The notes under the pieces are model-generated. The model searched no databases. It saw only the letters and a list, made by a program, of their open reading frames with translations, and had not been told where the DNA came from. DNA of 63,004 bases, counting the filler. It is 4 parts of 4 records of this genome, joined end to end, with 100 filler letters (N's around TTAATTAATTAA, not from the genome) between each part and the next. Parts side by side here need not be neighbours in the genome. Positions count along the whole stretch, not along the records: positions 41,341 to 57,090 come from SRR20825019_2788; 3 more parts are not named here. One strand, written 5' to 3'. The translations under genes were made by a program, and so were the position numbers. The first letter of the stretch is position 1. Each line of letters opens with the position of its first letter. This document shows, piece by piece, positions 31,588 through 54,885 of this stretch.

Positions 31588-31710
31588 TTACAAAACCGGT
31601 GCAGGCTTTTTATTACACAAGTCAGAACTATTGACGATAAATTCACCAGGTCTCAGATATCAATAATGTTAAAGTGTTGTACGCAATCATCTACAAAGGT
31701 CCGGGTTGGA

Positions 31711-32949: not shown

Positions 32950-32958
32950 ATCACAGCC

Positions 32959-33075
32959 CGCACAATCATAGTGCAGGCTGCACCGATTTAGACTTAAATT
33001 AGCTTTTTTAATACCTATTTTTAGCAGCCATCTCATAGTAAAACAAATACTTACAGAACTGGCATGATTCCAGCA
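32959..33075 (+). promoter_or_regulatory. NtrC enhancer, IHF site and sigma54 -24/-12 promoter for the narK unit
   Basis: cGCACaatcataGTGCa (32959-32975, NtrC GCAC-N7-GTGC); aaacaaatactta (33041-33053, one mismatch to WATCAANNNNTTR); tGGcatgattccaGCa (GG 33061-62, GC 33073-74, N10 spacing). Confidence 0.8.
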
Positions 33076-33127
33076 ATTAGAACGCGAACCAATGTTGGTA
33101 ACGTGTTCTAAAGAGAGAACTGAATTC

Positions 33128-34594
33128 ATGTCTAGTCAAAAGCTAAACCTCCTGTCTTTCAGCGGCAACATCCGTACTCTCCATCTAACCTGGATGGCTT
33201 TTTTTATCACCTTTGTGGTCTGGTTTAACCATGCGCCCCTGATGGTTGCAATTCGCGACTCGCTTGGTCTTGATGACCAACAGGTGAAAACGCTGTTGAT
33301 CCTCAATGTGGCACTGACTATTCCGGCGCGCATCGTGGTCGGTATGCTGGTTGATAAATACGGCCCTAAAATCATGTTCAGTATGCTGCTGGGCATTTCC
33401 AGTTTTATCTGCTTCTTTTTCGCTATTGCCGACAGTTTTGAGCAGATGGCTGTAGCCCGCTTTATGCTGGGTTTTGTCGGTGCCGGTTTTGTTATTGGTA
33501 TCCGGATGATTTCCGAGTGGTTTCCGGCCAAACAGGTGGGTCTGGCTGAAGGCATTTATGGTGGCTGGGGTAACTTCGGCTCTGCTGCGGCAGCCATGAG
33601 TTTGCCGACACTGGCTTTGATTTACGGCGGTGATGATGGCTGGCGTTATGCGCTGGCAACGACCGGTGCGGTTGCGCTCATCTACGCGTTTATTTATTAC
33701 AACAGCGTATCGGACACACCTAAAGGCTCGACCTATTTCAAGCCTAAGAAAAACGGTGCGATGGAAGTCACCAGCAAAGGCGATTTCTTCCTTTATATCA
33801 TCATGAGCATTCCTCTCTATGCGGCGTTGGCACTGCTGGCCTGGAAACTGTCTCCAAATGGTGTTGAATTGCTGTCCGGGAACATCACTTATGCCATCTA
33901 TGCGGGTCTGATCGCTTTGTTTGCCTACCAGGTTTATCACATCTATCAGGTCAACAAGGAGGTGTTTACGACCGAAGTGCCAGAGATTCATCGCTACAAA
34001 TTCAAACAGGTGGCCGTGCTCGATCTGGCATATCTCGCTACTTTCGGTTCTGAGCTGGCCGTGGTCTCAATGCTGCCGCTTTATTTCAGTGATACCTTTG
34101 ATATCAGTGCGGTCCAGGCCGGCTTACTGGCGTCTGGTTTTGCCTTTATGAACCTGGTTTCACGGCCGGTGGGTGGTCTGTTCAGTGACAAACTGGGTCG
34201 TAAACGGACACTGACGATTTGCATTACCGGGCTGGCGATTGGTTACGTTGTGCTGGGCATGATTACGCCGGAGTGGTTACTGGTCTTTGCCGTCTTGGCG
34301 ACCATGGCTTGTTCTTTCTTTGTACAGGCCGGTGAGGGTGCCGTGTTTGCCGTTGTGCCGCTGGTCCAGCGCCGACTGACAGGTCAGATTGCAGGGATGG
34401 CCGGTGCCTATGGTAATGTCGGCGCGGTGACTTTCCTCACCGTGCTGTCGTTTGTTTCAGCTCAGACCTTCTTCTTCGTGATTGCTGCGACTGCCGTCGT
34501 GACCCTGATTGCGGTACAGTTTATGGATGAGCCGCGCGGCCAGATGGCGGAAATTCTGCCAGACGGTACTGTGCAAATGATTGACGTCCATTAA
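33128..34594 (+). CDS. narK: NarK/NasA-family nitrate/nitrite MFS transporter
   Basis: [16 protein letters not shown], nitrate signature [48 protein letters not shown] at 33128 after AGAGAG. Confidence 0.93.
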
Positions 34595-34605
34595 TAAGGA
34601 CTTCC

Positions 34606-36330
34606 ATGGTAGCCAGGTTAAAGGTCACGGTTGGCCAGTATTCTGATAAAGGGCAAAAAGCTGAAAATCAGGATTCATTAGGCTTTTCCGTGCCCGGCCA
34701 CCCTGCACTGCTCGATACCAAAGGCGTGGCCTGTGCGCTGGCAGATGGTATCAGCAGCAGCGCTGAGGGCAAGCAGGCCAGCCAGGCCTGCGTGACCGGA
34801 TTTATCAGCGATTATTTCAGTACCCCGGATTCCTGGTCTGTGAAGCAATCCGGCGGTAAAGTACTGACCGCCATCAATACCTGGTTGCATGGCCAGAGCA
34901 ATCATTTCAAGGATGCCTCACGGGGGCTTGCCAGTACTTTCAGTGCCATGGTGATCAAATCCATCACAGCGCACCTGTTTCATGTTGGCGACTCGCGTAT
35001 TTATCTTTATCGTGACGGTGAACTGGAGCAGCTGACTACCGATCACCGAATACGGATTGATGAGAACAAGGAATACTTGGGGCGGGCGTTTGGTGTCGAC
35101 TACTGTCTGGATATTGATTACAAGTCGCTGACGGTTGAGGTGGGTGACCGCTTCTTGTTTACTACTGATGGCATCCATGATGTGCTTAGCCATAAGCAGT
35201 TACGTAGTCTGCTCGGTAGCGAAATTCATGATCCGGATACGCTGGCACATCAGCTTTGCGAGCAGGCATTGCAACAGGGTAGCCAGGATAATGTCAGCTG
35301 CCTGATTCTGGATGTGGAACAACTGCCGACGCAGGATCCCAATGAAGTTTTTGCTCAGTTGACGGCACTGCCGTTCCCGCCGGAACTCTACGAAGGTGTC
35401 ATTCTCGATGGCTACCGGATTAGTCGCGAGTTGCATGCCAGTTCCACCAGTCAGCTTTATCTGGCGGTGGATACCGAAACCGGTGAGAAAGTGGTTATAA
35501 AAACACCGTCAGTTAATTTCGAAGATGATCCGGCTTATCTGGAACGTTTCCAACTGGAAGAATGGATTGGCCGCCGTATTGATAGCCCGCATGTGGTCCG
35601 TACCATTGAGCAGAAACGGCCGCGGCGTTTTCTGTATTATGTGCTGGAATACGTTAATGGCAAGACACTGGAACAGTGGTTGGATGATGTCGGCACGTTG
35701 GATTTGAAGTCGGTGCGGGAGCTGGTGCCACAGATTGCTTCCGGCTTACGGGCTTTTCACCGCCTGGATATGCTGCATCAGGATCTCAAACCCGGCAATA
35801 TCATGATCAGTCACGATGGGGTGCTCAAAATCATTGATTTCGGTTCAACCAAAATCGCCGGTATCGCCGATATTTCGACGCCGGTGGAACGGCGGGAGTT
35901 ACTGGGTACCAAGCATTACACGGCACCGGAATATCTCATTGGCAGGCCGGGCTCTACCCAGTCGGATTTGTTCGCGCTGGGCTGTATCGTGTATCAGATG
36001 CTGACCGGCAAACTGCCCTATGGCGACAAACTTGCCAGCGTACGGGAGCAAGCCGGCTTGAACCGGCTCCGCTACCGATCGGTCAGCGAGTCCATCAGTG
36101 ATATTCCCCACTGGGTCGATAAAGCTATTCGCAAGGCCGTGCAGTTATCACCCGAATCACGTTATGAAGCCCTGTCTGAATTGGAAGCGGATCTGGTTAA
36201 ACCGAACCCGGATTATCTGCGTGAGGAACAGCTGCCTTTAATGCAGCGTAACCCGGTGGGTTTCTGGCGGGGACTGGCGCTGTTATTGCTCATCAGTAAC
36301 CTGATTTTGATTTACTTTCTGAGTCGCTGA
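34606..36330 (+). CDS. Bifunctional PP2C-type phosphatase / Ser-Thr protein kinase with C-terminal TM anchor
   Basis: NQD, ADGIS, HVGDSRIY, TTDGI, GSQDNVS (PP2C); VVIK, HQDLKPGN, IDFG, YTAPE, SDLFALG (kinase); hydrophobic C-terminus. Confidence 0.92.
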   Translation: MVARLKVTVGQYSDKGQKAENQDSLGFSVPGHPALLDTKGVACALADGISSSAEGKQASQACVTGFISDYFSTPDSWSVKQSGGKVLTAINTWLHGQSNHFKDASRGLASTFSAMVIKSITAHLFHVGDSRIYLYRDGELEQLTTDHRIRIDENKEYLGRAFGVDYCLDIDYKSLTVEVGDRFLFTTDGIHDVLSHKQLRSLLGSEIHDPDTLAHQLCEQALQQGSQDNVSCLILDVEQLPTQDPNEVFAQLTALPFPPELYEGVILDGYRISRELHASSTSQLYLAVDTETGEKVVIKTPSVNFEDDPAYLERFQLEEWIGRRIDSPHVVRTIEQKRPRRFLYYVLEYVNGKTLEQWLDDVGTLDLKSVRELVPQIASGLRAFHRLDMLHQDLKPGNIMISHDGVLKIIDFGSTKIAGIADISTPVERRELLGTKHYTAPEYLIGRPGSTQSDLFALGCIVYQMLTGKLPYGDKLASVREQAGLNRLRYRSVSESISDIPHWVDKAIRKAVQLSPESRYEALSELEADLVKPNPDYLREEQLPLMQRNPVGFWRGLALLLLISNLILIYFLSR

Positions 36331-36381
36331 TGATGGCTGTAGAATAGTCATTACTTCGTATCAGATAGCTGCCTGCCTTTC

Positions 36382-36813
36382 ATGCACCTCACCACTTTTT
36401 CAGATTATTCCATGCGTGTCCTGATGTATCTTGCGCTGCAGCAGGAACAGCGGGTGACGATTGGTGATATTGCAAAGCGCTATCAAATCTCTGAGAACCA
36501 TCTCACTAAAGTGGTTCATTTTCTGGCCAAAGCCGGCTATATCAAAACCATTCGCGGCAAGGGCGGTGGTCTCAGCTTGAACAGGGCCGCTGAGTCAGTG
36601 AACCTGGGTGAAGTCATCCGCCAGACGGAAGGCGATGAGGGGCTGCTGCCCTGTGTCCATGGCGAAGGCGATTGTTGTCTTATTCAGGTGTGCAGGTTGA
36701 CCGGGATTTTACGGGAATCGCAACAGGCCCTGTATCAGGTGCTCGATAAATATACGCTGGCCGATTTACTCGTTGATACAGTTCCACTCAGCCGGATTCT
36801 GACACCGAACTGA
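36382..36813 (+). CDS. nsrR: Rrf2-family NO-sensing regulator NsrR
   Basis: MHLTTFSDYSMRVLMYL, ISENHLTKVVH, RGKGGG, three Fe-S Cys (C..C..C). Confidence 0.88.
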   Translation: MHLTTFSDYSMRVLMYLALQQEQRVTIGDIAKRYQISENHLTKVVHFLAKAGYIKTIRGKGGGLSLNRAAESVNLGEVIRQTEGDEGLLPCVHGEGDCCLIQVCRLTGILRESQQALYQVLDKYTLADLLVDTVPLSRILTPN

Positions 36814-37627
36814 GGTTTTGCCAGGGTGGTGGCATGTTATTAAAGCGCCTGAGCTGTTGTTGCAGCGTTTTCTTCAGATGCTCACTGTTACGCTGGCTCT
36901 CATCAAGAATAGCCTGAAGTTCATCCTGTGCCGCCATCGGCAAGTCAGCCAGCATTGTCTGCTGCACTGCCGCATCATGAATATCACCTAATTGGTCTTG
37001 CAATGCTTTCATCATATTGATGAAGTTCTGGCTCGTGGTGCCGTCCAGCACCGGCGCAAGAAATTCACAGCCATAACGCAATTGCTTGAAACTAATGCGA
37101 AGCTGATGCAGTGCCGCTTCATCATTCAACTGTAAATCCTGGGTCTGTGTCTGCAGGTTCTGATAAAGCGTATTCAGTTGTTGCTTAGCCAGCCAGCGCA
37201 ATGACAGCGTCTGACGATAGCAATATTTTTTTTGCCAGTGTGTCTGCGCCAGTGCTTTTTTAAGTTGACGCCGGCGTTTGTTGAACTTGCCTGATTGGAG
37301 AGTGCTGCAAAGCTGTTTGTATAGTCTGGCCTTTTTCTTCTCTAAAGCCCCGTACAACTGAGAGTCTGATGCGGTTTCACCGAAATGCGTCAGTAGAAAC
37401 ACATCCAGATCACGCGCCGCATCCAATTGCTTTGCTAACTGCTTCAGTCGGCGTCGCCACTGCTGGCGGTAAGCAGGTCTAATAACCGGACTGAAAATGG
37501 TCAGGGCGCTACGCATCTTACGCAGACTGATCCTGAGTTGATGAACACCTTCAGGATCCCGGCCTTGAATCGCGACTTTGCGCCAGTGTTTGATGTTCGA
37601 CAGCTCGGCGAGGAGCAGGGTTTGCAA
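36788..37627 (-). CDS. CHAD-domain (polyphosphate-binding) protein; start uncertain
   Basis: DPEGVHQLRISLRKMRS, ARDLDV, LHQLRISFKQLRY, LQDQLGDIHD. Confidence 0.88.
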   Translation of the reverse strand: MQTLLLAELSNIKHWRKVAIQGRDPEGVHQLRISLRKMRSALTIFSPVIRPAYRQQWRRRLKQLAKQLDAARDLDVFLLTHFGETASDSQLYGALEKKKARLYKQLCSTLQSGKFNKRRRQLKKALAQTHWQKKYCYRQTLSLRWLAKQQLNTLYQNLQTQTQDLQLNDEAALHQLRISFKQLRYGCEFLAPVLDGTTSQNFINMMKALQDQLGDIHDAAVQQTMLADLPMAAQDELQAILDESQRNSEHLKKTLQQQLRRFNNMPPPWQNLSSVSESG

Positions 37628-37653
37628 TACCTGGCAGGCCGGCGCACTGCCAT

Positions 37654-38181
37654 TCAGTGCTTCTTTAGCAGTTTACCGTGAATACGTTGTTTGAGTTCGC
37701 AGCTATCGGCTTTGAGCTCCGCCCATTTGCCGTCAAATTCAAGCAGAACCAGCGAGGCCGGCAGCAGGCGTTTGCCATTAGGCTGATCACTGATGAAGTC
37801 AGTCCGGCTTAAAGCATCAACCAGATCTTCCAGTGCCGGATTGTGTCCCACTATCAGGACGCGGCTGATACGTTCGTTGAGTGTGTGAAAAAGTGATAGA
37901 AAGGTGTCGGTGTCAGCCAGATAAAGGGCTTCGCGAGGGCTTATGCCATGTCCGTCGATCGAGAGTTGTTCACAGACTATTTCGGCTGTCTGTAAAGCGC
38001 GTTTAGCTGTTGAGCTGTATATCGATTGTGGAATCAGTTTCAGCTCAAGCAAAGCCTGACCCAAATTGACGGCCTGTTGTCTGCCGGTTTCATTCAGCGC
38101 CCTGTGAAAATCACCGGCTGGAGAGTCGGTCTCTGCCTTGGCGTGACGTAAGATCATGATTTGTTTGGTATTAGCGACCAT
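37654..38181 (-). CDS. sixA: SixA-type histidine phosphatase
   Basis: LRHAKAE, RALNETG, SSTAKRALQT, LIVGHNP. Confidence 0.88.
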   Translation of the reverse strand: MVANTKQIMILRHAKAETDSPAGDFHRALNETGRQQAVNLGQALLELKLIPQSIYSSTAKRALQTAEIVCEQLSIDGHGISPREALYLADTDTFLSLFHTLNERISRVLIVGHNPALEDLVDALSRTDFISDQPNGKRLLPASLVLLEFDGKWAELKADSCELKQRIHGKLLKKH

Positions 38182-38381
38182 AACGTGACAACCTCGGATT
38201 GGCTAACTTAATGAGAGGGAAATATTTTCGCCGGCAAACTGGACCTGCCAGTTCAAGCATAATCAGGCAGACAGGCAGATGCAATGGCTGAAGCGATTGC
38301 TGTAGTTGCAGGCCGCTGGCGTTTTTTTGAGCAATGACATTATTGTTTATGCTTAGAGCAGCTTAAGACTTTTTACGCCTG

Positions 38382-38416
38382 ATACCCACAGACTTATCCA
38401 CAGTTATTGTGAGTAA
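38382..38416. promoter_or_regulatory. Cluster of three DnaA boxes (DARS/datA-like)
   Basis: Perfect TTATCCACA at 38394-38402, degenerate ATACCCACA at 38382-38390, inverted TGTGAGTAA at 38408-38416. Confidence 0.6.
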
Positions 38417-38460
38417 AAAATGAAGTTCTAATTAGGAGAGTTGCTGAAGACAGCGGCAAC

Positions 38461-38491
38461 AAAAAAGGGCCATGCAAAAGCATGACCCTTT
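38461..38491 (-). terminator. Rho-independent terminator after tRNA-Thr
   Basis: agggccatgc-aaaa-gcatgaccct stem followed by a T tract on the minus strand. Confidence 0.75.
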
Positions 38492-38499
38492 ATTTGTTC

Positions 38500-38575
<76 letters not shown>

Positions 38576-38588
38576 AATGAAGAAGCGC

Positions 38589-38617
38589 ATTATACGTAGG
38601 AGCCTATGACTCTGCAA
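38589..38617 (-). promoter_or_regulatory. sigma70 promoter of tRNA-Thr
   Basis: TTGCAG-N17-TATAAT followed by GC-rich discriminator GCGC. Confidence 0.8.
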
Positions 38618-38779
38618 GTCATTTGCCCGGTACTTTTACAGGGAATCGCTAAGTTATTGAAGCTAGGTAAAACTAACTCGCTGGAACAGCCCGGAATCTC
38701 AAACAGGGCGCTTGGCCGGAATCGGATTCAGACAGTTTGTTGGGAAGGTAGGGAGAAATCAGCAGGGAATGCAAAAAAA

Positions 38780-38856
38780 TGGGGTGAGTGATGGGGCTCG
38801 AACCCACGACAACCGGAATCACAATCCGGGACTCTACCAACTGAGCTACACTCACC
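38780..38856 (-). tRNA. tRNA-His(GTG)
   Basis: GGTGAGTGTAGCTCAGTTGGTAGAGTCCCGGATTGTGATTCCGGTTGTCGTGGGTTCGAGCCCCATCACTCACCCCA, includes G-1. Confidence 0.97.
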
Positions 38857-38911
38857 ATTAATTTTTGCAGAAAGCAGGGCGTTTGCAGCCCCGTGCTTTA
38901 GAAAGACGATA

Positions 38912-38939
38912 ATTCTACTGTCTTTATTTTTCTGGTCAA
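38912..38939 (-). promoter_or_regulatory. sigma70 promoter of tRNA-His
   Basis: TTGACC-N16-TAGAAT. Confidence 0.65.
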
Positions 38940-38976
38940 GGAAAATCTGTCTATACAGCTAAGATTAACCGTCATG

Positions 38977-38999
38977 AAGCCGCTACGAGAGCGGCTTTT
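38977..38999. terminator. Hairpin immediately after rnr stop
   Basis: aagccgct-acgag-agcggctt. Confidence 0.6.
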
Positions 39000-39001
39000 C
39001 C

Positions 39002-41170
39002 CTATACCAGTTCCAGATCGATTTTCTTTTCATCCAGATCGACGCGGACCACTTTCACGGTCAGTGTGTCACCCAGCCGGTAAACCTTGCGAGTGCGTTC
39101 ACCGGTAAGCCGGTGGCCGGTGGCATCAAACTGATAATAATCGTTCTTTAATGAGGTGACGTGAACCAGGCCTTCTATATAGATATCACTCAGTTCCACA
39201 AACAAGCCGAAACCGGTCACACCGCTAATCACACCCTGATGGGTTTCACCGACACGGTCACGCATGTATTCACATTTGAGCCAGTCACTGACGTCACGGG
39301 TGGCTTCATCAGCGCGGCGGCTGGTCATTGAACAATGATCACCCAGTTGCACCATATCCTCATGCGTATAACGCCACTTGCCGGCTTTTCTGCCGCTGAT
39401 GATATGGCGGATAGCACGATGGACCAGCAAATCCGGATAACGACGAATCGGTGAGGTGAAATGAGCATAGGCATCCAGTGCCAGGCCGAAGTGACCAATG
39501 TTTTCCGGTGTATACACAGCCTGTTTCATACTACGCAGCATGACGGTCTGCAGCAGGTGACCATCCGGCCGTTTGCTGGCTGTTGCCAGTAAAGAGGCAT
39601 AATGACGTGGTTCAGGATCATCTCCGCCACCGAGGAACAGGCCCAGTTCACCCAGAAAATCACGCAGCCCACTCAGCTTTTCTTCTGATGGTGTTTCATG
39701 CACGCGGTACAGCACTGGCAGTTTATGCTCGAGCAGGAATCGGGCAGCGCTGACATTAGCCGCAATCATGAACTCTTCAATCAAGCGATGGGCATCGTTG
39801 CGTTCGCGTGGCTGAATTGAGCTAATCTTACGATTATCATCAAACAGGAACTGGGTTTCGGTCATTTCAAAGTCGATGGCACCGCGTTCTTCACGTGCCT
39901 TGAGCATGACATTGAACAACTCATACATGGTTTCCAGCGTCGGCAAGACAGACTGGTACTGCTCACGCAGTGTCTCATCGCCATCAACCAGCATGGCAGC
40001 CACCTTGTCATAGGTGAGACGGGCCTTGGAATACATCACCGCTTCATGGAAGGTGTGCGATTCCGTTTTGCCTTCCTGGTTGATTTCCATTTCGCAGACC
40101 AGACACAGTCGCTCAACTTCAGGATTCAATGAACACAGGCCGTTGGACAGCGCTTCCGGCAACATCGGTATCACCTGGCTAGGGAAATAAACCGAGGTGC
40201 CTCGGTCGCCAGCATCCAGATCCAGCGGACTGCCAGGTTGTACATAGTGCGACACATCGGCGATCGCTACCCACAGTCGCCAGTTACCGTTGTCCAGACG
40301 CTCAGCGCAGACAGCATCATCAAAGTCCCGTGCATCTTCGCCATCAATCGTGACCAGTGGCATGTCGCGTAAATCCAGACGACCTTCAATCGCATCCTGC
40401 GGAATGCTGTCACCAAACTGCTCCGCCTGTTGCAGCGCTTTATCTGACCATACATGGGGCAGTTCGAAGTCACGCAGGGCGAGATCGATTTCCATACCCG
40501 GTGCCATATGATCGCCGATAATTTCCACTATCCGGCCCAATGGGGAACGATGAACGTTGGGGTTTTCAGTGATCTCAGTTTCAACGATCTGATTTTCTTT
40601 GGCACCGATGAGAGCTTCAGGAGGAATCAGAATGTCCTGGCTGATGCGGCGATTATTGGGGATCACAAAATAGATGCCGGCGTCACGTATGAGACGCCCA
40701 ACGATATGAGTATTAGCACGGTGGGTGACTTCGACAATGGCGCCTTCCTTGCGGCCTCTGCGATCAATACCGGTGATACGGGCGAGGGCGCGATCGCCAT
40801 GCAGGACACTGCGCATCTCGCGTTCACCCAGGAAAAGGTCATCGCCGCCTTCCTCAGGGATTAGAAAGCCATAGCCTTCAGGGTGACCCATTACCCGACC
40901 ACTGACCAGGTTCATTTTGGAAAGGACACCGTAAGCGCCCTTACGATTGCGCAATAGTTGCCCGTCACGCTCCATAGCCCGTAATCGACGTCTTAAAGCT
41001 TCGTGTTCATCTTCCCCTGTTATGTTTAGCAATTTGGCAATGCCTTTTCGGGTCAGGGGGACATTATTTTGCTTTAAAATCGAGAGGATAAACTCTCTGC
41101 TCGGGATTGGGTTGTCGTATTTCTCGGCTTCACGTTCGAAGTTGGGATCGTTTTTCTTGTTATCAGTCAT
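39002..41170 (-). CDS. rnr: Ribonuclease R
   Basis: KYDNPIPSRE, cold-shock domains, TIDGEDARDFDDA, YAHFTSPIRRYPDL, C-terminal S1; probable start MTDNKK at 41170. Confidence 0.97.
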   Translation of the reverse strand: MTDNKKNDPNFEREAEKYDNPIPSREFILSILKQNNVPLTRKGIAKLLNITGEDEHEALRRRLRAMERDGQLLRNRKGAYGVLSKMNLVSGRVMGHPEGYGFLIPEEGGDDLFLGEREMRSVLHGDRALARITGIDRRGRKEGAIVEVTHRANTHIVGRLIRDAGIYFVIPNNRRISQDILIPPEALIGAKENQIVETEITENPNVHRSPLGRIVEIIGDHMAPGMEIDLALRDFELPHVWSDKALQQAEQFGDSIPQDAIEGRLDLRDMPLVTIDGEDARDFDDAVCAERLDNGNWRLWVAIADVSHYVQPGSPLDLDAGDRGTSVYFPSQVIPMLPEALSNGLCSLNPEVERLCLVCEMEINQEGKTESHTFHEAVMYSKARLTYDKVAAMLVDGDETLREQYQSVLPTLETMYELFNVMLKAREERGAIDFEMTETQFLFDDNRKISSIQPRERNDAHRLIEEFMIAANVSAARFLLEHKLPVLYRVHETPSEEKLSGLRDFLGELGLFLGGGDDPEPRHYASLLATASKRPDGHLLQTVMLRSMKQAVYTPENIGHFGLALDAYAHFTSPIRRYPDLLVHRAIRHIISGRKAGKWRYTHEDMVQLGDHCSMTSRRADEATRDVSDWLKCEYMRDRVGETHQGVISGVTGFGLFVELSDIYIEGLVHVTSLKNDYYQFDATGHRLTGERTRKVYRLGDTLTVKVVRVDLDEKKIDLELV

Positions 41171-41212
41171 TGACAGTTTCAAATTCACTCTGTAATCTTT
41201 GCGCCTTCTTCA

Positions 41213-41240
41213 GCCCAGGTGGCGGAATTGGTAGACGCGC
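41213..41240 (+). tRNA. 5' fragment of tRNA-Leu, truncated by contig end
   Basis: GCCCAGGTGGCGGAATTGGTAGACGCGC; upstream TTGACA(41170)-N17-TAATCT and GCGCC discriminator. Confidence 0.85.
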
Positions 41241-41340
41241 NNNNNNNNNNNNNNNNNNNNNNNNNNNNNNNNNNNNNNNNNNNNTTAATTAATTAANNNN
41301 NNNNNNNNNNNNNNNNNNNNNNNNNNNNNNNNNNNNNNNN
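41241..41340. other. Artificial contig linker
   Basis: N run with TTAATTAATTAA. Confidence 0.98.
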
Positions 41341-42049
41341 CATTCATGACCATCAGCATCACCGCCATTGGCCATTGTGCGATACATGAGCTTCTGGAAC
41401 TTGGCGTGGTTCGAGTCATTAGAAGCTGGGAAAGATCACTCCCACAAGCCGAAAAGACGAAATCAGGACTGAAGTCGCACTTCTTGTCTTAATAAGCGGG
41501 GAGATTGATGTAAGCACTGTCAGTTGCTTCTACATCGTTCCCGCTGTTGTACTGCCCAAGAAGGGCCCACACAAAGTGCATAAGTGGCTTCGGTATCGCA
41601 TCATATTTGCAAGCCGGTTTACCTATATCGGCCTGCGGGGGTGCTGTTTCGTCAATCCCGGAGCACGGAACTCAGGCTTGACTTCAGGGCTGCTCTTTCT
41701 TACCTCAAGAATTTGAAAACTTTTGCGGGAACTACGCTGACACCTATGATAGTCGTCTCTCCTACTATCTCCGCGGTCTCTGCGCCACATCTGAACGCAC
41801 TATCACGTGCTTCAGCCTCGCTCCTTATGGCATCGGGTACCGGGCTTGCGCATCCCGGCTCTCGACACACACACGTGGGATGATCAAACAGTACATGCGA
41901 CTTTATTCGTATGGCATGGGTCACTGGACTGCGAAAATGAATTCATATATAGTCACGCGGCATCGTGAATCACCTCGCTGTCATGCAGTGCATATCCGTC
42001 CCTATACCTCAGCACTATCCGGATGTGTTACGGGAGCGCAGCAAGGCTG

Positions 42050-44502
42050 CTAGAAACCTGCCCATTCGAATCCAAACAAACCGGCATCATGCGCTGATTC
42101 CCTGAGATACTTCACTTGGTTGTCCCATTCGATAACCTCCGGGTTGTAGTTGAGCATATTACAGACGGCGGGGAAATTGCTGATCTTCATCGTACCGCCC
42201 TCGCTCTTTCTAAAGAATCCTTTCTCCACAAGAACATCTACCGCCTCCATGACACATTCCGGCGAGGTTGGCTTCTCGGAATTCTCAAATCCATATTCCC
42301 AATGTCCCTCAGCTAAAGCCCTTTTCAATCTAGCTAGGTTCATGTTCACGTCTGGAGGGATCCTACTTCTCCGTCCGAACTTCTTCACTTGCCCGCAATA
42401 AAACTGGAATGCAAACTCGGTGCTGCAACCTAAACGTCAGTAATTGCCAATGTGCATATAGATGTGAACTCACCATATTGGCTCAGTCGTGCTCATCACT
42501 TCATGAGCCACAAATTGATTCTTCGCAATATGCTTGAAGAACAACTTGAGACGATCTGCAGACGAACAAGTTGGCGAATAGGAATCGGTCCGCTTCACGC
42601 CATGTGCGGTAGACACGAACAGTGGCGCCATGTGCATTTGTGCAAAGTAGCAATTATTGTCGGGTGACATGTAACCACCGAGGCTGACGACTGATGACCA
42701 CAATCTATCAGCCGTCATGCACAGCAAGAGTCACGCTCATACTTACGATAGAATCCATCGCCGTATCCTGGACCTCCAAACCATGGCGGGGGCGTGTCGC
42801 CCCTGGTTGTCACACTGTTGATCATTCGGCCAGGGAAGGTCTTCAGGGGGCCCGAGTCACGGGTCCCCTCGGTAAATAATTTGGTTGCCATGGCCGACTG
42901 AATCAGCGGTGCCACAGCAAAGTCCACCATTCCACCCATCTGCTCCCGCCTGGTCAGCATACTGATATTCTCATCCATCAGAGAATCGCCGGATCCCGCA
43001 TAGTCGTCCAGAATCACGATCTTGGTTTGATGACGGTCGCCAGCCCGCTCTTTCGAGATTCGCTTTATCCCGGCAAGGGTCTGAACCTTCCACGGGTCGA
43101 GTTCGTTGACGGTCAAATGTATCATTGTCGCCATGGTGAAGCTCTTGGGGGTAGTGCCGGGGATAAAATACAGGTCTGGTTCAAAGGCTTCCTCCACCAT
43201 GGCAAGGTGGATGTCCCGAGACAGTCTAACAAGATTGTTCATGCTGAGGAAGTGACCATCCTTCTCCATCCCTGCCGCAACCTCATCCTCGCTCCCGCAC
43301 CCCGCTACTGTGCGCACCGCTCGCTGGTATTCCCTGAAAGTGGGCATCATAGGGGCCAGCTCCATCGTGGCATAGAGGAGAAACAAGTTCCCTTGTGCTT
43401 CAATGTTCATTTCGCTATCGTCCAATTCACTTTCCGAAAAGAGGCCATCATCATCAAAGTCGGCGATGGCAGTGTACTCATCTGAGTCCATCTTGTCGTT
43501 GAAGTGCACCATCACATCAGGCACCCTCTCCAGACCCTCCTCTTCCGCCCACTGCTCCAGCTTACTCCGCACGTTCGACATTAGGATGCGCGTGAACATC
43601 ATGTGCCTCTCCACCACCGCCTGCCGCCCCGGTTCCATCTCGCCGTAGGAAGCGTGATACACATCCTCTACGTATTGGTGCTCATGCTCCTCAATAAGGA
43701 AGGCGCCCCTTTCCTTCACAGCCAAGGTTTCCTTCAATGCCACGGCAAGGCGTTTGATTATTTCTTTGTATTCCAATTGGTTAAAGAGGTTGAGCCCCAT
43801 TCCCCATCCAAGCGGCGCTAGAAACTTGACCTTGTCGTGCTGCGACAGTGCCATCAAATTCTTCTTCAAAGCTCTTCCCTCCGGAGTGTCCGCCGAGGCC
43901 TTGCGCATGAGAATTGTGTCCAGAACAATGATGTACCGGTCCTTGTTGCCTACCATGGACTTGCATCTCTCGAACTCCGACGCGTCGTAAGGGCACTCCA
44001 AGAAAAAGTCGATCGGGTCCATGCCATGTTCACTCATGTTGGGAATCTTATTCTTGGCGGCAAGGTAAGCGAGAACATCGCCCAGTCCTGCCGTCTCTTT
44101 GTCAATGTACAGCGCGGTCCCGGTGTGTATGAGCTCGCCCAGCAGGTTGTTTAGACTCTGCAGGTTTCCGTAGTGAGAGGCTTGGTAGACCAGCTCCGCA
44201 AGCTCTCCCGATGGGACACCAGCGTCTGCCGCCGCCACACTCACGGCAGCCTCCAAATCCTCAGTTGTCAATATAAGCATCTTCCGCTTGAGGGCTCGGA
44301 ACTGGCGGCCCAGCGCCGTGTCCGGCACTTCTTCGCCTCCAAGGTGGTCCAGCATCTCTGACACGTTCAAGTCTGACGAGTCGTCACTGGAGTCGCGGAA
44401 CATTGCCCCGGAACGGCCGCCCGAGATACGAACGGCGGCACCCACAGCAACCAGCAGTGCAAGGGCACACACCCTAAGGGTTGTGGCACGCCCTGGGGTC
44501 AT
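42050..44502 (-). CDS. Secreted protein with C-terminal phosphoribosyltransferase-like (PRTase-CE-like) domain, 3 exons
   Basis: Signal peptide MTPGRATTLRVCALALLVAVGAA; PRPP loop KIVILDDYAGSGDS; intron 42691-42746 joins GYGDGFY|LVSLGGYMSPDNN; second intron about 42430-42473 reads in frame to stop at 42050; TATAAAG at 44546-44552. Confidence 0.72.
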
Positions 44503-45430
44503 CACCGCACGCACTCCTTCCGGCTCCACAGGTTGTGCTCCTCTTCTTTATAGAAATGCCAAAGGGAACACTCAAAAGACAGGTCAGCCGGCAGACGGTA
44601 ATGTGGCCATCTTCAGCGGGGCCTCCGGCTCGGCCGGACGGGGCCACTGTCACTGGCCGGCCCAAGGCTCACTAGGGCGCCGTAAAGCTTCCGGGCCACC
44701 GTCCGAGGACCCGAACACGCGGCCGGCCGGGGCGGCGCCGCCGGCGGGCAGTCACGGTCCGCCGGCACTCAAGCCGGGGCGCCCGAGTGGCAGTTTTGGC
44801 GACCAACCCCGGCTGCGGGGCCTGTCATCAGTCATTCTTGGGGCGCCGGCTGTCGGTCAGTGGCCGGCGTGCGTAGTAGGCCCATCCATAGGTCGAATAG
44901 GATGTTGTCCCGAATGGGGGGGGGGACTAATTTGAGTTTCGGATGACGGGCGCGACGGGGCCGAATCGGACGGCGTCCGTGCCCCCCGGCACTGTGCCGT
45001 GGGCACCGTCGGGGGGCGCCGGGACGGGGATCCCAGAGTTCAAGTTTCGGGGTCTGACCGGCTCACTTCGGGCCGCGGTCTCGGCGGGAGCCGCCCCTGG
45101 CCGTGGCCTTGTCCGGCCACAGTGCCGGGCGGCCGCGTGGCCGCGGGACCGCGGGCCTCAGTTTCGCCACGTTGTGGGGGAGGGGGGGGGGGGGCACGGG
45201 GTATTGCATTCGATGCTTATTCGGCGCGGGGGCGGGCGTCTTCCGGTCCGGGCCGGCGCTGGCGGCCTCGCGTCCGGTCCGGCTGGCCAGTGAGCGCGGG
45301 CGCGGTTGGCGCCGCGCACCTGGTAGGTGATAATGCCCGCTAGGCCGCAGACAGGGTGCATATATATACACTAAAGCATGGAACTGAGCTCCTTAGTAGT
45401 CGCCATTGGATCGCGGGCGGCCACCGTGAA

Positions 45431-48400
45431 ATGGCGACGAAGGCTAAGAAGGTCACTCGTAAACAAGTTGCCACTTCGGCCCCCCTCTTGGAGCCCGCAT
45501 CTCGCCCTGGAAGTGCCCAGAAGATACGCGCGGAGGCGTTGCTAGGTCGTGTCCTGCCGGTTTTGGACAGCTTCGCCGAAGCCAAGACATTGAGGGTGGG
45601 TTGGGCGGGCAATGGTGTGATGTTGCTCTGATCTTGCTCCGACAGTGCCGTTTGTCAGTCCTGGACAGTGAGCATGCGGAGCCCCATACTGATGATAGTA
45701 AGGAGAGCTTCATGAGCTTCGTCCATTCTCATAAGGCGTGTTTGTGCGGCCTGCCTAAGGGCATGGAGCCCAGCGGGCCCCCCATCCCCCCCGCCATGAC
45801 TGAAACATGGAAGACCGAGGCCGAGGACGAGGCGCGCCAGCTGCGTGAAGCACTGGCGGCCCACGGGGGGTCGGAGAGCCACCCGGCGCCGAAGGTGGCG
45901 CCGCCGGACTCGGAGGACGAGTTCAAGGCGCTGTTGAATGCGCATGGCATTCATACGGTGGAGTGGGGGTCACGCTCATACAATAATGTGAAAAGCCTGC
46001 TGGCCACCCTGAAGGACGGTAAGGGCATTCTGCGCAAGAAGGGAGAATCCTTATACCTGGAGCTCCATATGGCGACACTCGTGTTGCCCGAGCCGCGCAC
46101 CGAGGCGGAAAGCGACAGGATCCAGCGGAGGTCCATTGTGGACCTGGCGGGCGCAGAGCACCTGGCAGGTCATGAGCGCTACTTGATTGAGACACACCAG
46201 ACACTCGTGGACAATCGGATGAGGGCCCGGTTCCAAAGCCCCATCACGACCATCCGGCTTGGGCATGGGGAGTCCTGCTATGATGCAGCCAGGCGCCTTC
46301 TAGTGGAGGAGCTCGACGAGACACGGTCCAATGATCGCAGGTTTGGGCATGACCGGGGGGTGTTGTTGATGTCTGACAGTCCTTTTCTTTGCGCAGGATA
46401 CGACAGAGCGTGGCCAACCACAAGTATGTCTGCACCTGTGCCCACACCAGCCACAAGGTGACAGTGCGTGACCTGCCATCACCTGACTACCCCACCCTTC
46501 CTACAAGGATATTCCTCCACCACGTGGCCGCTTACCACGGCAGCTTGCCGACGCGAGCTTTCTGCACGCCATCACGGAAGGCGGGTGATGTGTCCGTGCG
46601 ATACTGGGACTGGTTCGATGAGCCCTTGTGGTTGCGCACCATGGCCTCGGCATGGGAGGACAAGAATACCACCGGTCAGGCCTCCAAAGGAGATGCAGCC
46701 GCGGTGTTGCAGGCCAGCGCAGGGAGTGTGGAGATCGACTGGGATGTGGAGGGCGAGGCGCTAGATAGGTCCACTGAGAACTTTGTGCTTACGACCCTGT
46801 TCCCATCGTGGGCCAAACTGGGTGTGAAGATCCTTGCGGGCGGGTTTTCAGGCTCGCTGGTAGTCATAGTGAAAGGGCATGATGTGCAAGGCAACCTCCA
46901 GACACCGTGCGTGGCCAAGCTTGATCGATGGGAAGCGATATCGGATGAGTACCAGAATTTTAAGCTGATTGCCGCGGATCTGGGCGACAACTCCCCCGCG
47001 GTGCTTTCCACAAGCTTACACATCCTGCCCGATGTCTGCGCTAAGGCAGGGCTTCGATTCGAGCTGGCCGGGGCGTGCTGGAACGACCCTAAGTTCATGG
47101 ACAACGTGAAAATCAATACATACAAAGACACCTTCCTACAGCAAAGCCAGTTGCAGGATGACGGCGCTGGTATGGACTCTTTGCACTTTGGTGATATCCG
47201 TGCTGTGATCAAGGAGGTGTTCGGGGACATCATGGTAGGGATCGGCATGGGTGCGAGGTAGGGGTCACTGACTCTATGCAGGTGGAGTCAACCTTTAACA
47301 AGAGCGTCAAGAAACGCGGGAATCTCTTTGCTGAATATGAAATAGCCGAGAGCGTGAGTCGATACATATTCGATGAAGCCCCGGAGGCGAAAAAGAAGAA
47401 GAGACCGATGAATCCATCCGTCCTTGAGGAGATAAGAAAAGGCGGGCTTGTTGAGCTGTTCCAACGGTTTCGGGAGCACGTGACACTCCAGTCTGTTGGA
47501 GAAGGGGACCACTACTATGGAGTGTGTCATGGTAGGCAATTGTACCTCTGCCATGTGATGTTGTTGACCATGTCCAGGGGATTTGAATGGAGCAAATATC
47601 CTGATAGATTTCTACGAGGTCATCTGGCTTATTGATTTCGCGTAAGTTCTTGTTGTTATCTCACTTGCTGTGGACTAAGCTGGGTCCCTTGCAGCACCAC
47701 TGGGCACATGCACATCATGAAAGACTTGTGCAAGGTAGCAATACTAATTCTGGTGACAGCCACGCTTGGCTAATACTGTCTTTTCAGCTCGAGTCCTGCG
47801 TGCTTCTGGAATACATCAATACCAGCGGCTCCGATACGAGCTACGAGGATGCAATGGAGTTGATTGCATGCCTAGCCTCCATGGATGACCTGTCCACCCC
47901 TGTCCCCCCACTTCATGCCATACCCACGCTACCGTCAAATGTCGCTGGTGCGGCTCCTTCCCTGGGCATTCGCATCGCGTGGGCGGCCATTATAGAAATC
48001 CGTCATCACATTTCGCGATTCTGCAAAGATGTGACCTCGCCTCTCGAGTATGCCTTGCCATTTCTGTACTTCTCCCTCAAGGCGCTGTCCTTCCGTGAGA
48101 CTTCAATGGAGTACAAACGGCTCGCCATTCACGCGTGCAGATGCTTTGCGACCAAAATCCTGTCTATCCTAAACCCAGAGGCACTGAGCGAGGACGAGAA
48201 GTCGCTGGTTCAATGCCGATCCGGCTTTCGCGCGTCATCTTCGAACGATGTCGATAATGAAGCCGTGAGCGCATTGGAGGTTGATCTCGAAGAGCAGCAG
48301 AAGAAGTACCTCAGCTTCGTCCAAATGAAGTTCGGGCGTATTGTTGATCCGATCGGTGGCCAGGTGTTGAATGTGTGGGAGAACTGTGTCCCCATTAAGG

Positions 48401-51400
48401 TCCTCCAGGCCCGTGAACAGGATGAAATGATGTCCCAAAATCGCGCGGTCGATGATATCAAGATGGAAGATGACGAAAATTCCGTTGATGCCGTAACCAT
48501 CCTGCTACCCTTCAAGAAATGGGAAGAGGAGAATGAATTCTTGGCGGATCGGGACGAGCAGTTTCCCGGGGCGGCATGGCATGAGTTTGAATATGTGATG
48601 ACGGACAACGCCGGGGATGCGAGTGATGGCCCCACACCTGTGACCATGGCTTGCGAAGGCATTAAGCGAGGTCCACCGGTGGACGTTAACTTGCGATATG
48701 AAGAGGTCCAAACGGCACCAGCAGCAAAGAAGTCAAAAGCAAAGAAATCTGGGGGCCCTACCCGTAGCAGTTACACCAGGGAGGTCCGCACTGGCCCGGA
48801 GAAGCTCGTAGCAGGGGGTTTCATCCCGTGTCTTCACACGGCGTCCGGGCACTCTGCATCCTCATATGTGCGCTGCAAGAGTTGCCGAATGGTCTTTCAT
48901 GATGTCGAGTGCTTTGTGCGGAGCCACTCCGCCGATCCCAAGGAGTTTGACGACGAAGCCATGGACGACCGTCGCCTCCAGGAGGCTCATGAAGAGAACC
49001 ACACAAAAGGATATTTGAACGGGGGTGTGTACAGCTCCGCGGGCCATGAAATCATCGTGAACTCTCCATATGTCTTTGATGCGGGAGAGCCGGTGAAGGA
49101 GCTCGAACAGAAACTCAAGAGGACACGTGCCTGCCCTTGTGGCGCCCCGGCCTCCGAGTTTTTGAAGTATGCTTCTCACACCGCCCAATTTGACCAGCTG
49201 GCGAAGCATTGCTCCCAGTCGTTCTGCGATGTGATAATCGCGCCGGCCGATCACATGTTTGTGTGCAAGTGCTGCCAACTCGTAAGACGGCTGCGCTCAT
49301 TATTGATGCTGATTGTGCTAACGCGACACCTGCAGGTTTTCCACAGCTCAAGGTGCTTGGTCCAGAGTCACGTTTGTCTGCCCCCGGGCCCCGTCCCCAT
49401 CCCCGATGACTCACCTTATCTGAGGCTTTCGGACCTCCTGGATGAACCGCGCCTTCCTGTCGAGGAAAACAAGTTCTGGTTAATGCCTTCTCTTCCTGAT
49501 GACAACAAGTACGTGGTTCTGGGACCCGCGGCCAGCGGCAAGAGCGTACTCCTCAAGCGTCTACTGGTGCAGTCCGCCATGACCCAGACCCTGGGCGGGG
49601 CCACGATTGTGCCGTACCTCGTGATCCTTGTTGATCTCGCCCGGTTGGTTGAGAAGCTTGGGCTGCGATCAAGCGACGATCTCATTGACCACTACCTCCT
49701 TGACAAGCATGGAAAGTATTCCAGTCGATACGCATACCTCTCTCACGCAAGGAAGCGAAAACAGCTGTACATCATGATGGTAGGTGATTTGTACCGTGGC
49801 GCGAGAATCTGCTGACGACAGTGCCTCAGGACGGCCTTGATGAGACCGGCTTTGCCAGGGCCACCATTGAGGACTACATCGGAACGCACCTCTACGGAGA
49901 GGGCCTCCCCCTGCTCATTTCTTCTCGCCATGCCGGGTTCGACCGAAACAAGTATAGATCGTGGAAGTTTGTACTCATCCGCCCTCTGACCCAGGATTTG
50001 CGATTGTCGCTTTACAAAGCACGGTTTGGCGACGATGGCTTCTATGAGTTTTCCAACAGCTTGCAAGCCATGGATGAGAACTTGATCTCAATGACTGGCA
50101 CACCACTGCTGTTCAGTCTGTATTGCTTAGTCTACCGTCTGCAGCAAGAAGAGGGACTGGGGCGCGCGGAGATCGACAGGGGGATGTTGTACCGCGTCGG
50201 TATCGAGCTCATGCTCAAAAATTTGGACGCTGCGAAATTCCGAGGGAAAAAGAAGGTTGGTGCTGAGGAGCTAGGGTCGCAAGAGTGGGAGGAGCACGTT
50301 CATTTCTTGAGCGCCCTAGCGTTTGATCGGCACTGCAACGACGTCGAGAGCCGTGATATCATGCGCCCACACATTGCCGCGCTCGAGTCCAAGCTACGCA
50401 AGGGAGCCATGGTCAATCCTGGTCTCAACACCTCCAACGTGGCTGCGGTATGGGAGCGGCTGGAGGCCGGGGTGCGCTCTGGCAGGGTGCCTCTCTTGAC
50501 ATGTGTGGAGGACAACGTCCAGAGAGATCTGGCCATCTATCGCTTTTCTCATTTGACCTTTCAGGAGTATCTTGCCGCAAAGGTGGCGGTGATGAGAATT
50601 AAGGAGATAATGTCCATGGGGAGCCGTGAGGAGGCGCGGAAGGAGTTTCTAAAGTCGTTCACCAACAATGACAAGGAGCCCTACAACATGCTTTACCATG
50701 CATGGTACCGGCAAATGGTTGCACTGACGGCGGCAATTCTCCCCGATGACGCCTTCCGGTGGTTCTTTTGTCACCTGTCGTCCATCCAGGATAGCCGCGT
50801 CGTCTACGAGAGCCTTCCTCTCGTTGGGGAAGAAAAATTGCGTGCGAATCCTTCCTTCAATTTGTCTTTTGTCTTGAACACCAGTGAAGATGCAGTCGTC
50901 CTCTCTCCGAGGCTTAACTATGGTAATATGTTGAGCATGAAGCCGAGCGCGGAGGACAATCCAACTCAGGGCACAGTGGATGATGAAGAAGGCACGGATG
51001 ATATTCCACAGGAGGTCCGAGACATGATGAAGTTAAAGTTTCCTAAAAGAGTCATCGTGCCAAACCAAGACCTGGCAGCAAGAGTCAGGGAGAACGGACT
51101 CAAGGACATCTACAGTGAGATGAGAGATGACGGTAGTCCTGTTGCCCTTTTCCAATCCAACCCAGTCGTTCTTTCCCTGATGTGCACATCAGGAACGTCC
51201 CACATTGATGTGTCGGCTGTTGTTGAGGATCGGGTTAAGGACCGGCGCCGCGGCTACAACGACGAAGAGGAGGGTCTTGCGGTGCTCATTACTTCTGTTG
51301 GTCCTACCACCATGGAAAGTCTCAAGTTCTTTGGGCTGGGTGGCAAAATGACCTTACCAATTGCTCTTTCCGTGATGTCCCGCATTGATTCAAACTTGAC

Positions 51401-54803: not shown

Positions 54804-54885
54804 CCTCTGGATGGAGCAGTGGTGCATCCATGGTTAGGGCAGAGTAAATCGGGCGTTGCAGATAAGATTTGGTGGCGCCACACTG

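Follow-up and report, generated by a model that had tools for sequence, protein, structure and literature searches.

A Spliced Eukaryotic Gene for a Two-Domain PRTase-CE-Type Protein with a Signal-like N-Terminus and Toxin-like Bacterial Relatives

Introduction

To our knowledge, enzymes of the PRTase-CE type, which are phosphoribosyltransferases (PRTases), have been described only from bacterial retrons, where they act as cytosolic suicide effectors. Here we describe a eukaryotic gene for a protein of this type, located at 42050..44502 on the minus strand of a 63,004-base window, by which we mean the whole stretch of DNA that was analyzed. The contig that carries the gene (SRR20825019_2788) occupies positions 41341-57090 of this window and contains 0 internal N. 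PRTase-CE has been described as a family of type III-A retron effectors (PMC13712802; PMC7736814). The effector of Retron-Eco11 contains the phosphoribosyl pyrophosphate (PRPP) loop VVILTDTIGSGNQ and a retron-specific Gx14PNNxP motif; its activation is accompanied by a PRPP drop of ∼50%, and PRPP-motif mutants lose defence (PMC12746101). ShosT (ShosTA) is a toxin that joins an N-terminal α/β domain to a C-terminal PRTase, binds PRPP, and loses its toxicity in a DD>AA mutant (PMC11961720). Toxins of extracellular contractile injection systems (eCIS) carry DUF4157 at the N-terminus, a linker of up to >1000 residues, and the toxin at the C-terminus; the main text of this source, supplements aside, contains 0 mentions of phosphoribosyltransferase toxins (PMC8213781).

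The protein described here (the query) resembles the retron III-A effectors in that its family matches Pfam PF24390 by profile (54 of 63 relatives), in that four PADLOC models match the query itself, and in the type of its PRPP loop (KIVILDDYAGSGDS in the query, VVILTDTIGSGNQ in Retron-Eco11). Further points of likeness are a Gly...P(D)NN signature toward the C-terminus, which may correspond to Gx14PNNxP, and a putative role in conflict. Unlike these effectors, the query family comes without reverse transcriptase, noncoding RNA, or winged-helix partner (no reverse transcriptase was found among the neighbor open reading frames (ORFs) scanned on the gene's contig), and contains an additional conserved N-domain of ∼200 residues. 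Furthermore, the bacterial relatives stand alone or form the end of giant proteins, whereas the query is eukaryotic, spliced, and equipped with a signal-like N-terminus. With ShosT the query shares the two-domain layout with a C-terminal PRTase and the DD motif on which ShosT toxicity depends, but it has no PADLOC ShosT match, and the partner protein of its bacterial relatives is a different one and absent from the eukaryotic contig. Two Myxococcota relatives (L014 and L016) follow the eCIS toxin plan with eCIS_core, a >1000-residue linker, and the C-terminal module; the query, in contrast, contains no eCIS_core (Pfam). From the canonical type I PRTases (HGXPRT, UPRT, OPRT, APRT, PyrR, PRPP synthetase) it differs by an identity of only 7-16% in structural alignments, by the lack of a PF00156 match and of wide eukaryotic orthologues, and by its extra domains.

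Bacterial toxin genes have been taken up and reused by eukaryotes, as exemplified by the Dae amidases of ticks. The present gene would resemble these cases as a bacterial conflict enzyme that has introns and a secretion-type signal in a eukaryote, whereas the enzyme class, PRTase-CE, differs. In the literature searched, supplements aside, we found no description of a eukaryotic PRTase-CE. As far as our searches reach, the occurrence of PRTase-CE in a new two-domain family, the toxin-like bacterial contexts of this family, and its spliced, signal-bearing eukaryotic form are new relative to this literature.

Results and Discussion

Family Membership and Fold

We conclude with high confidence that the locus is a real intron-bearing eukaryotic gene whose product belongs to the family described below and adopts a PRTase fold. 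A phmmer search of 1.84 billion representatives (E <= 0.001) returned 14 proteins, the best with E = 8.7e-8 and none below 1e-10. These proteins align to the query along its full length, beyond the enzyme part. In the N-terminal region they share the motifs Q-x-G-N-x-x-S-L-N, L-x-Y-L-x-x-K, L-D-x-x-x-L, and P-x-G-W-x-x-G-x-N-x-F-N-Q, and after a linker follow the enzyme motifs K-S, h-h-L-D-D-x-A-G-S-G-x-S, A-P, and F-P-Y-M-x-P-D-N-N. A family hidden Markov model (HMM), built from six bacterial relatives with the query left out, scored the spliced protein with 129.5 bits in segments covering residues 71-265, 442-565, and 592-631. Judging by these alignments, the full protein including its conserved N-domain is a member of one two-domain family, a point absent from the preliminary description of this gene.

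Other searches added few members. Word-index searches found no homologue with the full query or with alignment A1, the first 500 columns of which are mostly N-terminal low-complexity sequence. With a domain-only alignment this type of search retrieved 11 more proteins, and none of these is assigned to a named eukaryote. A JGI metagenome scan with the eukaryote-type motif (see below) gave 7 loci, all of them uninterrupted bacterial-type ORFs with the long linker. Family relatives were found in none of the phage, plasmid, and IMG/VR collections, and the gene has no detectable paralogue on its contig. One viral match (L073) was rejected as a chance 12-residue motif scoring 5.8 bits.

The C-terminal third of the protein contains the PRTase-CE domain (residues 442-631; 42554..43179, minus strand), which spans intron 1. 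The sequence LYFIPGTTPKSF at residues 444-455 includes the near-invariant KS motif K453-S454 (43141..43146), which follows the first strand of the PRTase domain. The PRPP loop KIVILDDYAGSGDS (residues 494-507; 42982..43023) contains D499, D500, and G505, which are near-invariant in 63 sequences, and it matches the PF24390 pattern of a hydrophobic strand, two acidic residues, and x2-G-S/T-G-x-S/T. YMSPDNN (residues 592-598; 42653..42673) represents the C-terminal signature of the family. In the corresponding query segment GYGDGFYLVSLGGYMSPDNN, P-D-N-N stands 13 or 15 residues after a Gly; compared by description only, this G...P-D-N-N signature looks like a variant of the retron Gx14PNNxP motif. 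In total, 13 of 15 near-invariant family positions are kept in the query.

Profile comparisons support the assignment of this third to a PRTase fold of the PRTase-CE (retron III-A) kind. The query matches four PADLOC PRTase_III-A models with E values of 0.0016-0.009. PF24390 matches 11 of the 14 phmmer proteins at E <= 0.01, and five of these exceed the cut-off of 27 bits; with the same E value limit it matches 54 of the 63 aligned members (best 6.3e-13). Among the members that pass the cut-off are L002:10182-12008 (48.1 bits), L015:9171-10994 (49.5 bits), and L007 (41.1 bits), and all PF24390 matches in five bacterial genomes turned out to be members of the query's family. Since these members match PF24390, the link to PRTase-CE is firm by way of the family, although exon 1 of the query, compared by itself, remains below threshold. 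The Pribosyltran family (PF00156) gave no match with the query at E <= 1 and only five weak matches among the 63 relatives (best 5.3e-4); NCBIfam gave no match for the query. A domain-only profile searched against PDB sequences gave 15 matches (E <= 10), and 15 of 15 are PRTase-superfamily proteins aligned at the PRPP loop, the best being OPRT 4fym (E = 0.0042). The full-length family profile found nothing significant among PDB sequences.

An AlphaFold2 model of exon 1 based on the 63-sequence alignment reached a mean predicted local distance difference test score (pLDDT) of 81.8 and a predicted template modeling score of 0.84. In this model the PRPP loop comprises a strand at residues 493-502 followed by a helix at 506-517, and it aligns with the PRPP loops of solved PRTases. 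A Foldseek search with the whole protein as query returned PRTase-superfamily enzymes at probabilities of 0.97-1.00 and E values of 0.025-0.09; neither of two whole-protein models gave a match at E <= 0.001. Among the matches listed there was no retron PRTase structure, which is no evidence either way.

The observations of the preliminary description are borne out by these data, and its interpretation is supported in part. The motifs it quoted, LYFIPGTTPKSF, KIVILDDYAGSGDS, and the spliced GYGDGFY|LVSLGGYMSPDNN, are found on the minus strand at the positions it gave. Its PRTase-CE-like C-terminal third agrees with the predicted fold, the PADLOC PRTase_III-A models, the PF24390 matches of the family, and the PDB profile matches; Foldseek, which it had proposed for this third, returned PRTase-superfamily enzymes with the whole protein as query. 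The gene is intron-bearing, with two GT-AG introns on a eukaryotic contig, and the middle of the protein is helical, as it had described (see below). The comparison with ComF-like proteins is not supported, since the query matches neither ComF nor Pribosyltran in Pfam.

Gene Structure

Splicing of 42050..44502 by coordinates gives three exons and two introns with a continuously open frame and a coding sequence of 2346 nt for 781 residues (all features on the minus strand). Exon 1 (42747..44502) starts with the ATG at 44502, lies in a 610-codon open frame, and encodes residues 1-585 plus the first base of codon 586. Upstream of this ATG an in-frame stop occurs at 44550-44548, with no in-frame ATG between. 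Intron 1 (42691..42746) is 56 nt long, reads GTAAGT...CAG, and has its donor at 42746; exon 2 (42474..42690; 217 nt) encodes residues 586-658. Once intron 1 is removed, GYGDGFY is joined to LVSLGGYMSPDNN, and exon 2 again aligns with the YMxPDNN motif of the family. The HMM segment at residues 592-631 falls in this exon and thereby confirms intron 1. The GYG-to-YM spacing of the spliced query is within one residue of that in protein P0004 of the protist Spironema. Together with the HMM segment in exon 2, this spacing indicates that the splice is precise and that the gene is no frameshifted relic.

Intron 2 is predicted at 42423..42473 (51 nt, GTGAGT...TTGCAG, with a CTGAC branch-like site), and exon 3 (123 codons, 370 nt) together with the TAG stop at 42052-42050 is predicted at 42050..42422. 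Both introns are of the GT-AG type. Removal of intron 2, which has no homology support, keeps the frame open into exon 3; if the intron were retained, a TGA would come at once and the protein would end in ...EPIW. The GC content by codon position is 0.50/0.38/0.57 in exon 3 and 0.59/0.39/0.68 in exon 1, and the exon 3 frame has the best codon log-likelihood among the three frames. The codon-position pattern is coding-like in all three exons and similar to that of neighboring genes. The prediction of exon 3 is based on its open frame, the GT-AG signals, and this pattern. A candidate TATA box, TATAAAG, read from the sequence only, lies at 44546..44552, 44-50 nt 5′ of the ATG.

These features make it hardly credible that the locus is an artefact, be it a contaminating bacterial gene, a chimera of the assembly, or a pseudogene in decay. 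Such an artefact might be suspected because the window consists of four contigs from a mixed assembly, two of them bacterial, and because the gene stretch occurs in one sequencing run (kind unstated) and in no RNA run. However, removal of the two GT-AG introns restores frame and homology, there is no N inside 41341-57090, the neighboring genes are multi-exon and have the same codon-position GC pattern, the catalytic motifs are intact, and a Trp before GxGYG together with a short linker is common to the query and the Spironema proteins.

Bacterial Relatives and Their Loci

A scan of one genome per prokaryotic species identified 55 family loci. The hosts are Vampirovibrio chlorellavorus, other Vampirovibrionia/Melainabacteria (Gastranaerophilales and Caenarcaniphilales), and Myxococcota (Kofleriaceae, Haliangiales, and Polyangia). 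V. chlorellavorus is an obligate predator of the alga Chlorella for which protein injection by a type IV system has been proposed (PMC4451040). Copies in Melainabacteria are stand-alone genes for ∼510-1100 residues that are mostly located amid housekeeping genes. One V. chlorellavorus genome contains three family copies, two of them in tandem. The tandem paralogues of this species (L002:7773-9914 with L002:10182-12008, and L015:7041-8987 with L015:9171-10994) sit between truB and an FKBP gene, beside IMP dehydrogenase, with no partner gene of the type described next.

In Myxococcota the module forms the C-terminal 500 residues of proteins of 1300-2830 residues. Two of the ten long bacterial relatives scanned carry eCIS_core/DUF4157 at the N-terminus (L014, E = 4.9e-12; L016, E = 1.5e-8), with a linker of more than 1000 residues between eCIS_core and the C-terminal module. 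A homologous partner gene coding for ∼200 residues starts directly downstream, within a few bases of the stop codon, at 15 of the 50 bacterial loci covered by this count, namely at all 11 Myxococcota loci and at four Melainabacteria loci; at a 16th locus it is found nearby on the other strand. The ∼200-residue partner domain is characterized by the motifs AP(E), L-I-T-R-Y-x-x-C-x-G-E, and H-P-Y-A-x-R-G-x-x-H-W, and has no Pfam or PDB match. In five of 12 scanned partner proteins, all from Myxococcota, a BtpA-like TIM barrel is added (best E = 2e-6; L010:9518-10876, L014:9521-10900, L018:9612-10961, L019:9536-10960, and L022:9527-10939); short forms occur at L003:2857-3555, L023:9516-10181, L028:5597-6274, and L035:2498-3151. 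We consider the partner a candidate immunity or helper protein. A tblastn search of the window with partner proteins gave no homologue on the gene's contig.

By these contexts, the family has in Myxococcota the character of a delivered toxin accompanied by an immunity-like partner, and in Melainabacteria that of a stand-alone effector. The link to retron-type conflict loci made in the preliminary description does not hold at these sites: 46 neighbor ORFs at 10 bacterial loci contain no reverse transcriptase, and no STAND NTPase either.

The same loci bear on the idea that the query is no weapon but a lumenal, extracellular, or membrane-anchored enzyme or regulator serving its own cell, and that the bacterial family is not generally toxic. 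We regard this explanation as improbable. It would account for the Melainabacteria copies, most of which reside amid IMPDH, TruB, FtsZ, ribosomal proteins, and LpxK without a partner gene, and it would fit both a Spironema member without a signal and the observation that the Retron-Eco11 effector alone is not toxic. It does not agree with what is seen in Myxococcota, namely fusions to eCIS_core and a position of the module at the C-terminus behind a long linker, with the partner gene at 11 of 11 Myxococcota loci, or with the patchy distribution of the family, which is present in 25 of the 201 genomes sampled from the class of Vampirovibrio. An enzyme outside the cytosol would also not be expected to meet PRPP there.

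Eukaryotic Members and Origin

Three of the 14 phmmer matches stem from the EukProt transcriptome of Spironema sp. BW2, and no further eukaryotic members were found. Wide eukaryotic orthologues, which the preliminary description had named as evidence against its proposal, therefore did not emerge from the phmmer search. The four eukaryotic sequences have two features that are absent in the bacterial sequences: G-x-G-Y/F-G is preceded by a Trp, and the linker leading up to this motif is much shorter. They form a clade in a quick tree (SH-aLRT 99) and in a careful tree (100/99), with long branches of 1.5-1.9 changes per column. The quick tree attaches this clade between the two main clades of bacteria; the careful tree places it beside the Gastranaerophilales pair L023/L024, with supports of 69/39 and 82/98. 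A tree without Spironema and under a simpler model places the query beside a Caenarcaniphilales sequence (support 84). The query never groups with Myxococcota, which nest inside Melainabacteria.

All trees are unrooted and so do not give the direction of transfer. A bacterial origin of the family in eukaryotes is nonetheless somewhat more likely than not, since it is more economical in view of the wide bacterial distribution of the family, the bacterial home of PRTase-CE, and its occurrence in two eukaryotic lineages only. From the earlier proposal of horizontal acquisition from bacteria there remains the overwhelmingly bacterial and toxin-like set of relatives; the direction of transfer does not follow from the trees. 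Codon usage like that of the host, together with the two introns, speaks against a recent arrival. The best explanation for the eukaryotic version is that it acquired a hydrophobic N-terminus, a pair of short introns, a codon usage resembling that of the host, and a C-terminal extension of its own.

Regions Outside the Enzyme Domain

Overall, the protein consists of an N-terminal hydrophobic signal, an α/β N-domain, a helical acidic middle, and the PRTase domain. The signal-like segment comprises residues 1-26 (44425..44502, minus strand). Its N-terminus MTPGRATTLRVCALALLVAVGAAV is the sole strongly hydrophobic stretch of the protein, with a 12-mer Kyte-Doolittle value of 2.77. The basic sequence MTPGRATTLR precedes a 14-residue hydrophobic core, VCALALLVAVGAAV (residues 11-24), and small residues follow. 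AlphaFold2 modeled this segment as a helix with pLDDT < 50. From its hydropathy we read the segment as a probable signal peptide. Among the query and 31 retrieved proteins only the query (2.77) and Spironema P0011 (3.35) have such a hydrophobic N-terminus, apart from one alternative gene call among the 28 bacterial sequences. This distribution suggests a secretory signal gained in eukaryotes. The absence of a signal from the complete Spironema member P0004 means that export would be no rule for eukaryotic family members.

The conserved N-domain corresponds to the HMM segment at residues 71-265 (43708..44292, minus strand) and contains the motifs HYGNLQSLNNL, LAYLAAK, IIVLD, and APLGWGMGLNLFNQ. 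The family alignment identifies Y146, D195, and G236 as near-invariant. The AlphaFold2 model of this domain has pLDDT values of mostly 88-97 and strands at residues 130-133, 167-169, 190-193, and 225-230; it places D195 at the end of the third strand and G236 just past the fourth. Pfam, PADLOC, NCBIfam, and PDB sequences contain no match for the N-domain. Whole-model Foldseek comparisons listed the two-domain SIS proteins GKRP and GlmS isomerase, at root-mean-square deviations of 14-18 Å, so that a SIS fold is not claimed for the N-domain; the structural matches listed were taken up by the PRTase domain. Both the N-domain and the partner protein may represent new domain families.

The conservation of this domain raises the question as to whether the protein might phosphoribosylate a macromolecule or a specific small acceptor rather than drain PRPP, with the N-domain providing a second catalytic or acceptor-binding step. 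The N-domain is indeed as conserved as the PRTase domain and has an invariant Asp at a strand end and an invariant Gly after the next strand, and the BtpA-like barrel in five Myxococcota partners might act on a phosphoribosyl product. We know of no acceptor for any PRTase-CE, however, and the only effect measured in this family is PRPP loss (PMC12746101). Even with the precedent of ShosT, which likewise joins an N-terminal α/β hydrolase domain to a PRTase (PMC11961720), we consider such acceptor chemistry unlikely.

The helical, acid-rich middle (residues 266-441; 43180..43707, minus strand) was delimited by DSSP on the model, composition, and alignment, and contains insertions relative to the bacterial relatives. 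In the AlphaFold2 model, the stretch between residues 242 and 437 contains nine helices and a single short strand. The C-terminal extension (residues 632-781; 42053..42553, minus strand) has no detected relatives, and exon 3 shows no similarity to the C-terminal extension of Spironema P0011.

Proposed Function

On balance we lean slightly toward reading the protein as an exported, PRPP-targeting effector of bacterial ancestry, of which we infer the export, the chemistry, the target cell, and the origin. According to this proposal the protein would enter the secretory pathway, so that a PRPP-binding enzyme is kept out of the producer's cytosol, and would then be released or delivered to another cell, be it prey, a competitor, or an ingested microbe. 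In the target the PRTase would bind PRPP by way of its intact KS / DD-x2-GSG / YMxPDNN site and would consume it, or move the phosphoribosyl group to some acceptor, and thereby starve nucleotide synthesis. The proposed nucleotide targeting draws on Retron-Eco11 and ShosT as analogous cases. The producer would be protected by co-translational removal of the enzyme from its cytosol, where the Myxococcota relatives come with a partner gene. Taken by itself, exported toxin action has a chance that we put at just short of even.

A number of observations weigh against this proposal. PRPP is cytosolic and not expected outside a cytosol, and we identified nothing by which an exported enzyme would be delivered to or enter another cell. 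The eukaryotic member P0004 is complete without a hydrophobic N-terminus. The near-invariant FP before YMxPDNN is replaced by GG in the query, these being the two exceptions among the 15 family positions, and exon 1 reaches only 12.6 bits on PF24390 (E = 0.12, residues 484-534; cut-off 27), with the domain split by intron 1. Exon 3 has neither a family nor a PDB match (Pfam; PDB sequence profile search) and is without homology support, and the gene stretch, as noted above, occurs in no RNA run. Placement in the trees is unstable with long branches. In bacteria, no eCIS structural genes were seen within 8 kb of L014, and the partner gene is absent from 35 of the 50 loci, including those of Vampirovibrio. 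Finally, the Retron-Eco11 effector by itself showed no toxicity in E. coli (PMC12746101), so PRTase-CE enzymes may need activation.

A wider reading would hold that one two-domain PRPP toxin is common to organisms of different kingdoms that consume other cells or combat them, namely to the algal predator Vampirovibrio, to Myxococcota that carry it on contractile injection particles, to the predatory Spironema, and to the eukaryote of the query, and that the eukaryotic copies came from Melainabacteria-like bacteria with a signal peptide replacing bacterial delivery. We offer this only tentatively, as it is rather unlikely to be correct in all its parts. If true, the query would be the first secreted phosphoribosyltransferase weapon known in a eukaryote, and the secretory pathway would be both its self-protection and its launch route.

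The proposed exported effector would have consequences of its own. PRTase-CE with a conserved, undescribed N-domain constitutes a separate family that, in predatory and gut bacteria, bears features of a delivered toxin, and this family appears to have entered at least two eukaryotic lineages, where introns and a signal for export would have been added. Provided that the protein is secreted and active, depletion of nucleotide precursors would join the known chemistry of eukaryotic secreted weapons, and the gene would offer a tractable case of a self-toxic bacterial enzyme made safe in a eukaryote. The proposal would also point to a new class of cargo for eCIS or type IV secretion systems and single out the partner gene as a candidate immunity factor.

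Neighboring Genes and the Rest of the Window

The window consists of four contigs joined by N44-TTAATTAATTAA-N44 spacers at 28462-28561, 41241-41340, and 57091-57190. The spacers join separate contigs, so adjacency across them is without meaning. One eukaryote and at least two bacteria are represented in the assembly.

On the gene's contig, a chain of overlapping ORFs runs divergently from the gene at 45463-54143 (plus strand). This neighbor looks like one very large multi-exon gene for a protein resembling nucleotide-binding leucine-rich repeat (LRR) receptors. It contains a TCAD9-like kinase N-lobe (E = 6.1e-9; 36 bits, cut-off 40), a P-loop GPAASGKS with weak AAA_16/NACHT matches, and a weak LRR_6 match. 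A sensor-effector pairing of the two genes is conceivable: the query would be the effector half of a cell-autonomous immune pair, and its hydrophobic N-terminus a membrane anchor. The TCAD9, P-loop/NACHT, and LRR_6 matches of the neighbor are in line with this idea, as is the role of PRTase-CE as an abortive-infection effector in retrons (PMC12746101). Against it, the NTPase and LRR matches lack significance (E = 0.05-0.3), none of the bacterial loci scanned has such a neighbor, the bacterial partner family is unrelated to it, and adjacency in a single genome is weak evidence; we therefore judge an immune pair to be highly unlikely. A relation between the bacterial partner protein and the TCAD9 region of the neighbor was rejected at an hhalign probability of 0.1.

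The intergenic spacer at 44500-45460 has a GC content of 64-69% and contains short GC-rich inverted repeats as well as two G-runs in a 22-nt direct repeat (44904-44925 and 45171-45192). Farther along the contig, at 54886-56781 (minus strand), a 631-codon single ORF encodes an N-terminal membrane-like region and a calcineurin-like metallophosphoesterase (Metallophos, E = 2.8e-6).

Contig 1 (1-28461) is eukaryotic and codes for a four-domain cation channel, a DEAH helicase, and a 1804-residue protein with CPW_WPC and PLAT domains. The last of these is encoded by an uninterrupted 1804-codon ORF at 17245-22659 (minus strand; CPW_WPC, E = 8.1e-18). As Pfam describes CPW_WPC from Plasmodium, this protein hints at an alveolate-like host; contig 1 may derive from a different organism than the gene's contig. 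Contig 2 (28562-41240) is bacterial, with uninterrupted ORFs and two tRNAs at 38503-38575 and 38783-38855. By eye, its ORFs encode nitrate ABC transporter parts, an EAL-domain protein, an MFS nitrate transporter, a PP2C-kinase fusion, an Rrf2-type regulator, CHAD, SixA, and RNase R. Contig 4 (57191-63004) is bacterial and AT-rich (28-32% GC); by eye, it encodes an ABC ATPase, a large membrane protein, a ferredoxin reductase-like protein, and a PadR-like regulator that is followed by three paralogous membrane proteins.

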